A DNA stretch of 64,000 nucleotides from Vampirovibrionaceae bacterium NZW_1234 (GCA_041697335.1 JBGUGD010000007.1:32001-96000), one strand, 5' to 3'. Counted from the first letter of the stretch, positions 37,918-46,742 are shown. Notes: a model not told the origin generated them from the sequence alone. Made by a program: numbers and translations.

Positions 37918-38295
37918 ATGAACAACTCGGTTTCATTTTCTTCAAATACCCGTTTTGCAGGCACATTCTCCCAAATTCCTGTTCGTCACCATCAGCGGAA
38001 ATTACAGCCAACATGGATTATATTGAATCGTGAGGCTGAATTTCGAGCACCAACTCGCTTAAAGCCCAAACAACTACGGGCGTTGCTAAAATCCATGGCT
38101 CAAAAGTGGCCAAATCTTCGCATGAACCTTGAAATCAATAAAAAAATGCCGCTGCAACATTGGGCTAAAATCCAGATTGTTCCTAGCAATACTTCGGAAC
38201 AGGCACTTCTTGAGGAAACCCAGGCGGATCAGTATTTAAGGGGGCGATTGGAAAAGGTTAAGTCCCAGTTTGTTTATCACCATGGTGCTGTATGA
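37918..38295 (+). CDS. Hypothetical basic protein (N-terminal RFAG motif)
   Basis: Open frame MNNSVSFSSNTRFAG...; convergent with and overlapping the giant gene by 19 nt. Confidence 0.55.
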   Translation: MNNSVSFSSNTRFAGTFSQIPVRHHQRKLQPTWIILNREAEFRAPTRLKPKQLRALLKSMAQKWPNLRMNLEINKKMPLQHWAKIQIVPSNTSEQALLEETQADQYLRGRLEKVKSQFVYHHGAV

Positions 38296-44200: not shown

Positions 44201-46742
44201 TTTGGAGATCCTTGGGAAGGGTGCCGGATTTGCTCAAGGATTCTAGCCCATTTCGAATGTCGTTTAGGGAGCTATGCTGTCCCAGATGGCTCATCAACTG
44301 GGTTTGTAGCGTGCCAGCCATCCGCTGAATGGCCGGATCGCTTCCAGATTCATTCACATACGCATGAATTTGTCGGCTTAATTCCAAGAGCTGGCGGGTA
44401 ATTTCTTGTGCTTGCTCGGGACCAGCCTCCATCGCATCGGGCCGATCCATCAAGGCCTTAGCAGCCTGACGCAGCGGTGAATTTTCAGCCACGCCTTTTT
44501 GCTCCAGGGCGCGATCCAGACGCTGCATATTCAATAGCAGGCTTAACGGTACGGTTCCAGGTGCTTGAACCCGATCGTATTCCTGAGCCATTTGATCCAA
44601 GGTCATGGCCTGGGTCAGGATGCTGTTCTGCATGGCCGGATCTGTGGGATCCATGGCCCCAAGCTGTTTTTCGAGGTTTAGAATCTGCCGGCGGTTGCGA
44701 ACAAATTCCTCGTTGCTCAAATTCAGGACTTTGACCTGAGGCATATCCTTGAAGAAATCGCCACGGTCACCCTTGCTCATTCTTGCCCACATTTTTGGCG
44801 TAATAAGGATCTCTTTATCGAGAGCTTTGCTTTTGCTGACACCTTTTTTCTCCATGTCAGCCAGGACTTTTGGGGACACCAGGCTGGGGAAAACCATCTT
44901 ATCTGAGGACTTCAGCTGGACTTTTTCCAGTTCTTTCTGAAAGTCTTTGAAGAAAGGCAAATCGGGTTTTTCCGTCAGAATGTCGACTTGGCCGTTTTTA
45001 TCTTTCAAGTTGTGTTTGCCGACATACTCTTTCAGCCATGGATCAAAATCACCGCCTTTTTCCTTGGGCTTGGCTTTGATGTTGTTGTAGTCCATGACCG
45101 CAATCATGGATTGAGTGCTGCGTTCAGCAATCTCATAGCTTTTCTGCACAAATTTATGGGCTTGTTCCGCACCGGCTTCGGGCGTGGATTTCGTGACCAC
45201 TTCTTTCAGGAAACGAATTTGTTCGAGGTATTCTTCAAGACGGTGGCCAGATTTCTCAATGTCTTTGGTATCCATGTAATGCTTGCGCAGTTGGCTGATG
45301 TGCTCATCAAGCTGCTTATAATCTTCTTTCTTACTAGGAAGCTTCGTCAGAGAGAATGGCACTGATGGTGCGTTATCAACGGTTTTTTCTTTCCCGGAAG
45401 GTTTGCCGCTGGGGGTTAGCCATTCGCTGTGGGTCTGCAAAATCTTGGAGAAATGCTTATAAGCATCCTCGCGTTTGGAGGCCAGATCTGTTCCGTCTTG
45501 GCCTTTGACACCCTCAAGACCGCTTTCCCGAAGTTTTTGCTGAACGTAGATGGCTTTAATATCGGAGTTCAGTTTCGGCAGCACAGCGTTCTTCATGTAG
45601 TTCTTCACTTGGGTGTCGGCTTTCGGATCCGCCAACGTTTCCTTAACGTTCTTCATGCCGGTTTCGACATGCTTGAGATTGAAGGACGGATTTTTAACGG
45701 CTTTCAACTGTGTCAGCATTTCATCCGGCGACAAGGTGGGCGAGATGATTTCGTTGTATTTTTCCCGGTACTTGTCCATTGCCTTTGTCACGGCCTTGTC
45801 AGTGGCCACTTCGTCAGGTTGGGTTTCCAGTAATTTCTTTTCCATGCTGGGCCAGTCTTTTGCCAGTTCGCTAGGAACTTTCATGGTGGCCTTGTTCTGG
45901 TTTAACAGCTCGCTCAATTGCTGATCCAATTGCAGGCTGTTCACCCATACTTCCGCCAGCTGAAAGGGATAATTGCTCATCTGGCCCTGATTAATGGCTT
46001 CCGTGGCTTCACCGGCTTGCTGGCTGATAAACGTCGCTAGTTGCTGACGAAACGCGAGGTAGTCGGCAATAACCTGGGCCAAGCCTTCCGGGTTGTCACG
46101 CAGTTGTGCAATCCGCTCGGAAAATTCGGCAATCTGCTGTTGAAGGGAGTCGTATGTTTTGGCTGGGGTCAGACTGCCCAAATCCACGTTCTTGGATTTA
46201 GACACCGGCTTTTTACCGAGTTCGGAGGTTTTAACAACCGGACTGGCATCAGCCTTGCCTTTGGGTGCTACTGGTAACGGCTTGTCGGAACCGGTTAGTG
46301 CTTTGTAGACCTCTTCAAGGCTTGGAGGTGGAGTATACTTGGCCTTGGCTTTTCCATCTCGTGCGTCAGAGCCGCCTTCGCCACTTTCTTTGCCGCCGCT
46401 GCCTTTGTCTTCAATTCGGTCTTTGTAATCTGAGCCCTTAACAGCCATCTTGCCGTCGCCCCCAGTGGGGCTGTCAACGGTAGATTTTTCAGAAGTGGAC
46501 TTGTCTTTGGCTTTCGCAGGGGTTACCTCTGTGCCTATAGGCATATAGGGACCTGCCTTACCCTGGAGAATATACCGCAGAACAGGTTCGGAGTTACCCG
46601 TCATTTTGGCCAGCATTTTAATCATGTCATCTTGTGACACCGGCATGTCTTTCTTGCCGGCTTGTGGCGAGCTCTTGCTCCCTGCAAGCGGAGGTGTCTC
46701 AAAACCAGTTATCCGTTTTGGGTCTGGTATCACCACGATCAA
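38277..46742 (-). CDS. Giant (about 2821 aa) polymorphic-toxin/effector-like protein: helical N-terminus, Gly/Ala hydrophobic region, K/T/P linker, HExxH zincin, Ntox21-like C-terminus
   Basis: Uninterrupted 8.4-kb ORF; HLVHEMTH at 40404-40427; C-terminal FMSYD...H...GGVIK...R.YGTVD pattern. Start could be TTG 46742 or GTG a few codons downstream. Confidence 0.8.
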   Translation of the reverse strand: MIVVIPDPKRITGFETPPLAGSKSSPQAGKKDMPVSQDDMIKMLAKMTGNSEPVLRYILQGKAGPYMPIGTEVTPAKAKDKSTSEKSTVDSPTGGDGKMAVKGSDYKDRIEDKGSGGKESGEGGSDARDGKAKAKYTPPPSLEEVYKALTGSDKPLPVAPKGKADASPVVKTSELGKKPVSKSKNVDLGSLTPAKTYDSLQQQIAEFSERIAQLRDNPEGLAQVIADYLAFRQQLATFISQQAGEATEAINQGQMSNYPFQLAEVWVNSLQLDQQLSELLNQNKATMKVPSELAKDWPSMEKKLLETQPDEVATDKAVTKAMDKYREKYNEIISPTLSPDEMLTQLKAVKNPSFNLKHVETGMKNVKETLADPKADTQVKNYMKNAVLPKLNSDIKAIYVQQKLRESGLEGVKGQDGTDLASKREDAYKHFSKILQTHSEWLTPSGKPSGKEKTVDNAPSVPFSLTKLPSKKEDYKQLDEHISQLRKHYMDTKDIEKSGHRLEEYLEQIRFLKEVVTKSTPEAGAEQAHKFVQKSYEIAERSTQSMIAVMDYNNIKAKPKEKGGDFDPWLKEYVGKHNLKDKNGQVDILTEKPDLPFFKDFQKELEKVQLKSSDKMVFPSLVSPKVLADMEKKGVSKSKALDKEILITPKMWARMSKGDRGDFFKDMPQVKVLNLSNEEFVRNRRQILNLEKQLGAMDPTDPAMQNSILTQAMTLDQMAQEYDRVQAPGTVPLSLLLNMQRLDRALEQKGVAENSPLRQAAKALMDRPDAMEAGPEQAQEITRQLLELSRQIHAYVNESGSDPAIQRMAGTLQTQLMSHLGQHSSLNDIRNGLESLSKSGTLPKDLQKTIDKAIDAKGIIPDLKHLQKTQGKAITDTLGKLTKQHNLDGVLDKLNQEPGTPVTVKLNDLPQNVIRYDDEFSGMVKLGKIRLDKIDLDAKPSGKMLFKLEEKAAAKEKPRIRSGQLDGHPVIVDSQTGEVRIGNPDSIVVRTRADGPMEFVQVAQSFTTRDSYAPIYQTADGRFFRVNPDTQVREDITVVDDTPELPSKRLSFKLPSFEAPAPKPKADDKTIYSSNLRPDFYKAKDRLWSGKGSGQSTTSNPEIREMTAGLMERMSKPNYQMTHSDVAQLRLVLQHAAQSDPEMATQINGILSQLPQYSQADVQAIGSTLTGISGDLSKFTTTPGSSDDWTKQITQHLIQSHVVNNPSLRGNLLKQLDGGPLFKALPKATTDQLKELQKPGVNANQQAKNLAKAAHLLAEWKPASPSGADAPAVHEHQLLLGAIAKEVSLNPDAIAEGMVLLAKDIGDNTSVPQPIRELAQQAIATTDPGQRGEKLNRLWLAINGGGEGAPWSPTTPEGQQLKGRFNAMMMQLQQLARGPIMTQSQYNELSDQHGFESYIAQGQGAQVAKGMVKSIAPRLQDLEKQVNDFFKQTESTLGKQLTKMTIHAYKDLSGEDPFEGRRNLFKALDNLGIDVNFIMDRKDLFNQNRWKAFAPSEKGILFGSGRRDPFGLERIAKPGEKPTHFQQMQEALQDLHGVSSPKELQKGIAKVQQHYDEMFGSYHITVNGEKVRVQPPQTYLRQYITALSQGKDVNSIEKPSVKYVQMDGAKPVAVPFDERGNPISNYEVYSVPVPQNGMMPAGQTHQLIVVTPDQRASLPPGARRLEEREYQTRDATLEHQSGDMDNAMREMGSMLKEHQAFEPWVQATAAFMMGVMMPQSLPLAILGGMAIDFALNFDGDFQNHNWTQTAVAGIAGGAGFGAARLGGAAFGKMAAAKSLEASPLAKGIVNIGGHGVLNPLAAGMAGHTAGYASNYMITATHLQAKRSDIEAQLSKVTLPPQERERLEASLADINHQMKELNERPFMSSEDFALFAYNMGLGYGHSLASAGKAYLSKPSTPQVPSHVQHLMDAYGVKPTETVPAKGTTPKGMTAPEVLVPKKPVVIETPEGKTPIAKGKTATPVEETIPGGKGKTTTVETETTTPKVKDTVKPTETETTTPKGKNVKTVPAEKPIAPKGKLTPPAKTASGPRVMDPARVPEPVRNMAEQTIRQQWEQAWRSAGMENTLPAPRVEYVEGVTGATYDPAQNVVRVGITSETTAATVHSHLVHEMTHAQGLPYIAAAKLNGRSVSTPIHPDVIEAVRRSGLQNNPEAVQLGTSFDQMFREATQAGERLNVAREALLRTREIQAKSKSSAVDAQTQRATQEYQEAVRRYLSAPEELMARLAQFEATGDTQGAQLIRDMMAARRANNTTRLNELADTLATRLGLDHETVIRNGRTASPAGRGLMNLTEPTDPAARTNQPRANEAARRSSDLTEPIQRAVEEFPVARESSQLSKPTIDHVNQVIQDTIPTNGSDVFANREIQVRQNSDANARLAVRINNDGSITVEIPANASRIHAGDLAFEVSIARQRLASEGNSQLSQQMAHFDQTRADLQRVRNQIRNLESGGQTVPRELLQLRETLEFAASNNPVALRAQQAELQALSRRYRQASDSEVTRADGLSGAAQDSAMERAMALDTHGSRLNGDTLQNLRAREAYMTELWEAMARGDVTAIQNLRSGNHGPNAQTYADSGAHPTFTAAEQARLTRVIGETLRVHPNMTSANVATLVGGQDITSTYATGSNTHFQGTYFIQMPDGSIRIYPTGRTQNPIPSPSTPHGQPAGRDQRAYHEIPPEAAARLTRSQAETYANNFLLAHRPTEAQVLDHFRQRGFELREIRDNGFGMVYEVTRPDGSTFFMSYDRGNQQAGASIPHQARVGGVIKLFESEAQAFAGDRGSRWYGTVDGYALPSHLQGEGNRYNVPTQFQMPRIRYNDRNHTAPW

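Follow-up and report, generated by a model that had tools for sequence, protein, structure and literature searches.

We analysed a 64,000-nt stretch of DNA, hereafter the window, from Vampirovibrionaceae bacterium NZW_1234 (GCA_041697335.1 JBGUGD010000007.1:32001-96000), an environmental bacterium sampled from hot springs or mats. On the minus strand of the window lies the longest open reading frame (ORF) of the 3.70-Mb draft genome (41 contigs, 94.75% complete). It encodes a giant protein of 2821 amino acids; the runners-up in this genome have 2470 and 2037 amino acids. What is surprising about the protein is that relatives are almost entirely missing from about 15 billion proteins and that lysine gives way sharply to arginine at a domain boundary. 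An earlier interpretation, made before any database search and referred to here as the sequence-only reading, had seen in it a polymorphic-toxin-like effector with protease and nuclease-like warheads, whose N-terminal part might define an undescribed delivery class. The gene and its segments are arranged as follows.

38277..46742, minus strand: whole ORF (2821 amino acids plus stop), one uninterrupted frame.
46158..46742, minus strand: residues 1-195, K/S/G/P-rich N-terminus, probably disordered (P+G 21%), with no signal-peptide-like hydrophobic stretch.
41643..46157, minus strand: residues 196-1700, K/Q/L/E-rich scaffold, mostly helix-favouring, without family or relatives; GC content at third codon positions (GC3) about 0.58, which is genome-typical.
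41253..41630, minus strand: residues 1705-1830, Gly/Ala-rich hydrophobic block (36% G+A), two segments around an acidic loop.
40638..41060, minus strand: residues 1895-2035, T/P/K/E-rich linker, with a GC3 seam near its start and lysine runs that end at K2025.
38280..40667, minus strand: residues 2026-2821, lysine-depleted, arginine-rich module (5 K, 80 R).
39933..40625, minus strand: residues 2040-2270, HExxH domain; its model has a helix followed by a sheet of three strands, then the HEMTH helix and more helices.
40404..40418, minus strand: residues 2109-2113, HEMTH motif, read from the sequence.
38280..39932, minus strand: residues 2271-2821, C-terminal region, the last 119 amino acids of which recur as a separate fragment record (P0002).

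The frame, the hydrophobic block, the linker and the HExxH motif had all been pointed out in the sequence-only reading and lie where it placed them. The linker has the T/P/K/E composition described there; the repeats that had been seen in it amount to loose PKGK-type peptide motifs, and a tandem repeat at the DNA level was not found. The 2821-codon frame is a genuine gene, since chance could not keep so long a frame open. Its start codon is uncertain: candidates are TTG at 46742, in-frame GTG at 46736 and 46733, and ATG at 46646 (codon 33). A GAGG sequence lies only 3 nt ahead of the TTG codon and about 9 nt ahead of the GTG codons. A signal peptide results from none of these starts, and the sole hydrophobic stretch of the protein is internal. 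The remark in the sequence-only reading that the protein lacks a Sec-like N-terminus thus agrees with our analysis, as does the lack of any RHS, FHA or RTX family match in Pfam and NCBIfam.

Contigs from four public sequencing runs match the giant gene at 100% identity in both of its halves. The four runs represent at most three samples, hot-spring and microbial-mat metagenomes, and their depth is low. Among their contigs no alternative tail of the gene was seen at this low depth, at which the gene parts left uncovered in two small-share runs are likewise uninformative. One contig each from runs X9 and X10 departs from the giant gene, being matched up to 41395 and from 44326 onward, respectively; both continue for about 255 nucleotides beyond the breakpoint with sequence absent from the NZW_1234 genome. 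These contigs could stem from a variant allele or from another organism, or be chimeras of the assembly.

At the level of sequence, the giant protein is an orphan save for one domain. The whole protein gave no match above cut-off to Pfam, NCBIfam or PDB sequences (the best was DUF7432, 18 bits versus a cut-off of 27). Eighteen overlapping windows of 300 residues, searched against Pfam at E ≤ 10, returned coiled-coil-type noise only; none of 10 segments matched a PHROG family, and Atlas held no usable match for residues 1-1700. In its own genome the protein matches itself only, so that no paralogue was found, and there were no matches in 40 related genomes. Five matches of 12-14.5 bits among 400 other genomes of the class, searched with a stricter first look, are noise. 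Nothing was found among the proteins of 1551-4937 amino acids in a word-indexed set of 5.8 billion proteins, nor, for residues 200-1700, among the shorter proteins of that set. An exhaustive phmmer search of residues 1660-2821 against 1.84 billion cluster representatives yielded two proteins only: P0002, a 119-residue fragment identical to the C-terminus of the giant protein, and P0003, discussed below. Collections of genome, metagenome and viral contigs, including IMG/VR, contained no relatives. This orphan status is due in part to thin sampling of the lineage, as the family has four other genomes, all from other genera. Two findings that the sequence-only reading had named as arguing against itself, homologues invariant along the full length and a match of the N-terminal part to a structural or housekeeping family together with non-toxic C-terminal fragments, did not emerge from these searches.

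The exception is the HExxH domain. At the H and E frequencies of the giant protein itself, about 0.08 HExxH motifs would be expected by chance. P0003, a metagenomic protein of 483 residues and the domain's only relative, matches residues 2105-2254 in the phmmer search with E 1.9e-5; pairwise BLASTP gives E 5e-15 with 29% identity over 161 columns. The HExxH motif is conserved in P0003. Common to the alignment are HE-TH, PYI-AA directly after it, the Glu of an 'EA' pair (E2166) and EE-MAR (E2219/E2220), and the region ahead of the motif also aligns. P0003 is a singleton without a Pfam family on a 1.9-kb contig, and therefore provides no genomic context.

An AlphaFold2 model of residues 2040-2300, built from the two-row alignment with P0003, has a mean predicted local distance difference test score (pLDDT) of 73.2 and a predicted template modelling score (pTM) of 0.69. 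It places strands at model residues 32-37, 42-45 and 50-55, followed by a helix (61-86) that bears HEMTH at 70-74. E2166, 53 residues past the second His of the motif, and E2219/E2220 are shared by both aligned sequences; the model puts them on helices, where they are candidates for the third zinc ligand of a zincin. The modelled fold is a prediction from two sequences; its order of a helix, three strands, the HExxH helix and later helices fits the zincin core as described by Iyer et al. (2017; PMC5512222).

In a wide structural search (VIA) helical hairpins came out on top, with a best Z of 6.8. Six of the 50 matches listed start at model residues 1-3 and thus cover the sheet and the active-site helix, and all six are zinc metallohydrolases: the M1-family aminopeptidase 4fgm and PepO (4iuw), both with Z 6.2, ECE-1 (3dwb; Z 6.1), a DNA-protein-crosslink repair protease (6mdx) and AQ_1354 (1oz9), both with Z 5.5, and collagenase T (4ar8; Z 5.4). 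We take 6mdx and 1oz9 to be zinc hydrolases. These values of 5.4-6.2, like the best of 6.8, fall in the noise range. The best entries in BFVD were a phage 'Lethal factor' (E 0.018), uncharacterised phage proteins, IrrE-like proteins and several large-polyvalent-protein-associated proteins, all of them weak. A profile of the two sequences gave three PDB matches with E 0.34-0.62, all unrelated. Considering the conserved residues and the model together, we regard the domain as probably a metallopeptidase with the zincin fold, from a new and very rare family that gave no match to a named peptidase family in Pfam or PDB.

For the remainder of the C-terminal part, structural data are less informative. 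A single-sequence model of residues 2040-2821 has a pLDDT of 45.2, and Foldseek and VIA searches with it gave helical noise, with weak matches to PprI/IrrE, selecase/jannalysin and HtpX. A degenerate second sheet-plus-helix unit at about residues 2377-2450 was considered and rejected, as it appears only in this low-scoring model and BLASTP gives no support for it. The nuclease-like tip that had been proposed finds no family, fold or motif evidence in the last 550 residues.

Two composition contrasts divide the protein near the linker. The first concerns lysine and arginine. Residues 1-2025 contain 188 K and 73 R, residues 2026-2821 only 5 K versus 80 R (Fisher p 4.6e-29), and the probability of finding at most 5 K in 796 residues at the lysine frequency of the genome is 5e-11. 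The last lysine run stops at K2025, so that the switch falls at the end of the linker; the lysines left behind it are K2124, K2190, K2192, K2337 and K2762. AGR codons, which are one transition away from lysine codons, make up 19 of the 80 arginine codons in the tail and 4 of the 73 before it, compared with 10.3% genome-wide (p 0.0015). The HExxH domain family is not lysine-depleted as such because P0003 is rich in lysine. Elsewhere in the window, a 654-residue orphan ORF (9176-11140, plus strand) has 87 Arg, 9 Lys and a GC3 of 0.36, a signature like that of the giant protein's tail; it has no Pfam or PHROG family, its best match being ArnB_C with an E of 0.0046, which is below cut-off.

The second contrast is the GC3 seam. 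Codons 1-1899 have a GC3 of 0.578 (genome mean 0.57) and codons 1900-2821 one of 0.412. The optimal split is at codon 1925, and its contrast of 0.170 is the largest among 49 ORFs of at least 1000 amino acids, the next being 0.110. GC1 and GC2 (first and second codon positions) are raised in the tail and GC3 is lowered; just 0.5% of 955 ORFs surpass the tail's difference between GC12 and GC3, which is +0.143. This combination points to amino-acid selection or a separate origin of the tail and not to a simple mutational bias. From the seam it follows that histories or constraints differ between the two parts, but horizontal transfer is not thereby proved. Further, the entire protein is free of cysteine (0 in 2821 residues), for which P is about 2e-11 at the genome Cys frequency of 0.9%, although large ORFs lacking cysteine are not rare in this genome (33 raw ORFs of at least 600 amino acids).

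The hydrophobic block that precedes the seam consists of two segments, with best 19-residue Kyte-Doolittle means of 1.45 (residues 1708-1731) and 1.08 (1750-1768). Between them lies the acidic loop DFALNFDGDFQNHNW with three Asp and one His. The segments contain Arg and Lys and score under the hydrophobicity usual for a transmembrane anchor. The loop behind the second segment is rich in Lys and Arg, and small-xxx-small zipper motifs come after the two-segment block. The linker comprises 27 T, 23 P, 21 K and 11 E in 141 residues. Ahead of the block, the composition of the N-terminal 1700 residues is mostly helix-favouring, with a P/G-rich portion in the first 200 and more beta-type stretches near residues 900-1100 and 1560-1660. 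BLASTP self-comparison revealed no internal repeats in the giant protein.

This layout may be read in more than one way. The protein could be a resident giant protease anchored in the cytoplasmic membrane of its producer, with the scaffold in the cytoplasm, the linker spanning the periplasm, and the zincin and tail processing envelope or extracellular proteins on the outside. Such an arrangement would agree with the lack of a signal peptide and the exclusively internal position of the hydrophobic segments, with the Lys/Arg-rich loop after the second segment, placed as on a cytoplasmic face, and with the order of a proline-rich extended linker and a zincin-like domain behind it. The Pro/Thr/Lys-rich linker can be likened to the spacer of TonB. 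No secretion-system marker was found and no immunity gene lies nearby, which also fits a resident protein. We consider this anchored protease the main alternative, albeit a rather doubtful one: the hydrophobicity of its proposed anchors is no more than marginal (1.45 and 1.08), Arg and Lys occur in them, and it leaves the Lys-to-Arg switch, the absence of Cys from 1700 cytoplasmic residues and the GC3 seam unexplained.

The order of a hydrophobic block, a linker and a catalytic tip, and the seam, the strongest internal one among the 49 long ORFs, also recall polymorphic toxins. Under this explanation the protein would be an antibacterial effector with an unrecognised trafficking N-terminus and an exchangeable tail, and the seam at codon 1925 would mark the last cassette exchange. 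Zincin domains act in polymorphic toxins as releasing peptidases or as toxins (PMC5512222). With such toxins the giant protein shares its size and a C-terminal catalytic domain behind a linker, with an internal seam as cassette exchange would leave. By the definition reportedly given by Zhang et al. (2012) for polymorphic toxin systems (Rhs, CdiA, LXG, MafB and others), the likeness ends there. A trafficking domain (such as PAAR, VgrG, LXG, TPS or MafB-N), central RHS/YD, FHA or similar repeats, a family with variable tips, orphan cassettes and an immunity gene were each sought and none was found. Paralogues with a common N-terminus and swapped C-termini, a search for which the sequence-only reading had proposed, were not found in the own genome, the 40 relatives, the 400 genomes of the class, the protein sets and the contig collections. 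Directly downstream there is no same-strand gene of immunity size: the largest ORF in the 491-nt gap 3' of the giant gene encodes 60 amino acids, which would allow for a tiny immunity gene at most. Markers of type VI and type IV secretion systems and of contractile sheaths were not found in the genome, and avoiding lysine is not known to be of use against bacteria. Judged by sequence comparison, the label 'polymorphic toxin' thus fails every defining feature that can be tested, and an antibacterial toxin of this kind is in our view improbable. A new delivery class is not claimable either, because there is a single protein without relatives. A zincin domain and a toxin-like layout in a large multidomain protein are of a known kind, and a new class is not demonstrated.

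Some of the weak matches lead to phages. Phage tape-measure proteins are long helical chains with Gly-rich hydrophobic segments and a C-terminal peptidase-type domain, and the giant protein resembles them in that its long chain favours helices, its Gly-rich hydrophobic segments are internal and its peptidase-type domain lies near the C-terminal end. It might have been left stranded in the chromosome by a mobile element, as a tape-measure or ejection protein of a phage or as a 'polyvalent protein' of phage or conjugative origin. In Atlas, the nearest entries to the tail are phage hypothetical proteins (0.87) and a cluster with LPD23 in 61% of its members (0.86), scores which, being below the 0.9 line, count as leads only; the weak BFVD matches to large-polyvalent-protein-associated proteins go in the same direction. 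Zincin-like metallopeptidase (MPTase) domains occur in polyvalent proteins of phages and plasmids and in polymorphic toxins, and are proposed to act as self-releasing peptidases or as the effector itself (PMC5512222). The HExxH domain is like these MPTases in the order of the model core, in a later modelled helix with a conserved Glu, in its giant multidomain host and in its weak BFVD matches. It is unlike them in having no match to a PF18818-type or other peptidase family and no mobile-element context, and the companion domains of polyvalent proteins (ArdC-N, methylase, ART, helicase, SNF2, LPDs) are not found in the giant protein. In contrast to tape-measure proteins, none of its 10 segments matches PHROG, no Pfam phage or LPD family was hit, and the 64 kb contain no tail or head genes, so that the place of a tape-measure gene, between genes for a tail-assembly chaperone and the distal tail, has no counterpart here. 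With housekeeping genes on the flanks, no phage, integrase or conjugation gene in the window, no relatives in IMG/VR and no VirB4, a mobile-element origin seems highly improbable.

Helical hairpins dominate the structural matches and the Pfam windows give only coiled-coil-type noise, as would be expected if the protein were a structural giant of the cytoplasm or envelope, such as a cytoskeletal or coiled-coil scaffold. Its HExxH motif would then be non-catalytic and its split composition the result of a fusion of two unrelated genes. The conservation of HExxH and its flanking residues in P0003 and the zincin-like sheet-plus-helix core of the model speak against this proposal, and so extreme a K/R switch, together with the complete lack of Cys, would be unexpected for a cytoplasmic scaffold. 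We regard it as very unlikely.

We tentatively favour the possibility that the giant protein is an exported effector of several domains, specific to its lineage and with the build of a single-chain A-B toxin. The delivered effector with a catalytic tip that had been envisaged in the sequence-only reading is to this extent supported, namely by the absence of Cys, the compositional seam, the tail with more R than K and the zincin-like model. In this effector, residues 1-1700 would form a large scaffold or binding part. The Gly/Ala hairpin with its acidic tip (1705-1830), being marginally hydrophobic, would insert into the target membrane and appears suited to conditional insertion rather than to permanent anchoring. 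The extended T/P/K/E linker (1895-2035) would come next, followed by a cargo (2026-2821) that starts where the lysines stop and consists of the zincin-like metalloprotease domain and about 550 further residues. Arginines in place of the cargo lysines could protect it from ubiquitin-dependent degradation in the cytosol of a eukaryotic target, perhaps an alga or a protist. The protease may act on target proteins, or it may free the cargo by cutting the lysine-rich linker, a role like that suggested for zincin domains of other conflict proteins (PMC5512222). As a variant of the latter, a Lys-directed protease would cut the lysine-rich linker and would itself be lysine-poor to escape self-digestion.

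Translocation hairpins such as TH8-TH9 of diphtheria toxin and H1-H2 of CNF1 consist of two marginally hydrophobic segments and an acidic loop. The block of the giant protein has the same elements, two marginally hydrophobic segments and an acid-rich loop ahead of a catalytic part. It differs from these hairpins in having no homology to them, in its richness in Gly/Ala zippers and in the 140-residue T/P/K linker that follows.

A bias towards arginine over lysine that is confined to the translocated chain has been described for AB toxins that translocate through the ER (ricin, cholera, Shiga and pertussis toxins) and for CdtB, and has been explained by evasion of the ubiquitin-proteasome system (PMC4030972). 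The R/K counts given there are 21/2 for ricin A, 15/2 for CtxA1, 22/2 for StxA1 and 24/2 for CdtB. As in these A chains, R exceeds K in the giant protein only in the presumed cargo (5 K/80 R), the rest being lysine-rich (188 K/73 R). Unlike the known AB toxins, it is a single chain of 2821 residues, neither an AB5 assembly nor a disulphide-linked heterodimer, and has no Cys at all. No sequence or fold relation to their A chains exists, and the cargo is about 800 residues long compared with 190-270.

With regard to export, the genome has 13 matches to TolC-type OEP domains, two secretins and two full-length FlhA/FHIPEP genes (873 and 711 bits; C32:11501-13612, locus L004, and C2:99137-101233, loci L002/L006), both in flagellar contexts. 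TolC-like outer-membrane proteins and a flagellar export apparatus are present, and routes that do not depend on a signal peptide therefore exist. A second type III system was considered for these genes and rejected, since both FlhA-family genes lie among flagellar genes and no injectisome secretin context was seen. The second FlhA gene is flanked by a fliH-like and a fliI-like gene, and the cluster also holds fliF-like and rod genes; this is an unusual place for flhA.

Several results weigh against an exported effector. No secretion marker was found in the giant protein, no chaperone, immunity or secretion gene adjoins its gene, and the entire window is devoid of recognisable phage, integrase, conjugation, secretion, chaperone and immunity genes. 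VirB4, TssC and a contractile sheath were not found genome-wide in the 94.75%-complete draft. The lack of homologues means that there is no conservation or variation to compare. For the HExxH domain, a Foldseek search of the model against PDB gave nothing at E ≤ 0.001, the Z values of the VIA search remain at noise level, and no sequence profile ties the domain to a peptidase family in Pfam or PDB. The composition signals have counterparts as well. The GC3 values of neighbouring genes range from 0.36 to 0.61 and include the 0.41 of the tail. Lysine depletion is neither universal among translocated toxins nor unique in this genome, where K/(K+R) is even lower in four raw ORFs (of at least 300 amino acids and at least 5% R).

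A bolder form of the effector reading would have a mat-dwelling, non-photosynthetic relative of cyanobacteria (no photosynthetic reaction-centre gene was found in the genome) make a wholly new single-chain A-B toxin. A scaffold of 1700 residues and a glycine-zipper hairpin with an acidic tip would deliver a zinc-protease cargo of 800 residues to the cytosol of algae or protists, under an arginine-for-lysine disguise that evolved independently of the known toxins. Taken as a whole, this scenario is unlikely.

Should the giant protein be an exported effector, it would exemplify a large effector without detectable ancestry from a thinly sampled lineage, recognisable by its composition and segment order only. 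The switch from K to R at a domain boundary could then serve, at little cost and without any alignment, as a marker of cargo that has to survive in the eukaryotic cytosol, and lysine depletion could be used to screen metagenomes of uncultured bacteria for eukaryote-directed effectors. The HExxH domain would be the founding member of a new and extremely rare zincin family, of which about 15 billion proteins include two. Even if the effector reading fails, the gene illustrates the reach and the limits of characterising an orphan giant protein.

The next gene downstream of the giant gene (35914-37785, minus strand) encodes a 623-residue protein with a weak Methyltransf_28 match and C-terminal tetratricopeptide repeats (TPRs). 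It belongs to a family of four members of about 600 residues in this genome; the three paralogues (G000 contigs; C34:107429-109147, C10:150455-152020 and C3:14739-16280) are 34-56% identical to the copy in the window. Orthologues were found in 6 of 20 relatives, including relatives without the giant gene. A role of the TPR gene as a chaperone or immunity gene was considered and rejected on account of the three copies elsewhere and of the orthologues in relatives that lack the giant gene. A molybdenum-cofactor operon lies beyond it.

Upstream, the giant gene is flanked by divergent ORFs. The first (47138-47500, plus strand) encodes a lipoprotein-like protein of 120 residues with a Ser/Thr/Gly-rich, mucin-like tail and no lysine; inspection by eye revealed a lipoprotein-type start and an LSAC lipobox. 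Three further divergent ORFs have no family. ORFs at 48023-49669 looked glycosidase-like by eye, an assignment that we dropped as it has no Pfam support. Molybdenum-cofactor genes, sensors and oxidases make up the flanks of the window. Among the sensors are two large histidine kinases on the plus strand (16-2244 and 54486-58466), one with a phytochrome PHY region and PAS domains, the other with 1326 residues and multiple PAS and GAF domains. Four contigs of the draft genome (C11, C33, C36 and C40), about 3 kb each, have a GC content of 0.34-0.39 compared with 0.50 for the genome and may represent contamination or a mobile element in the bin.

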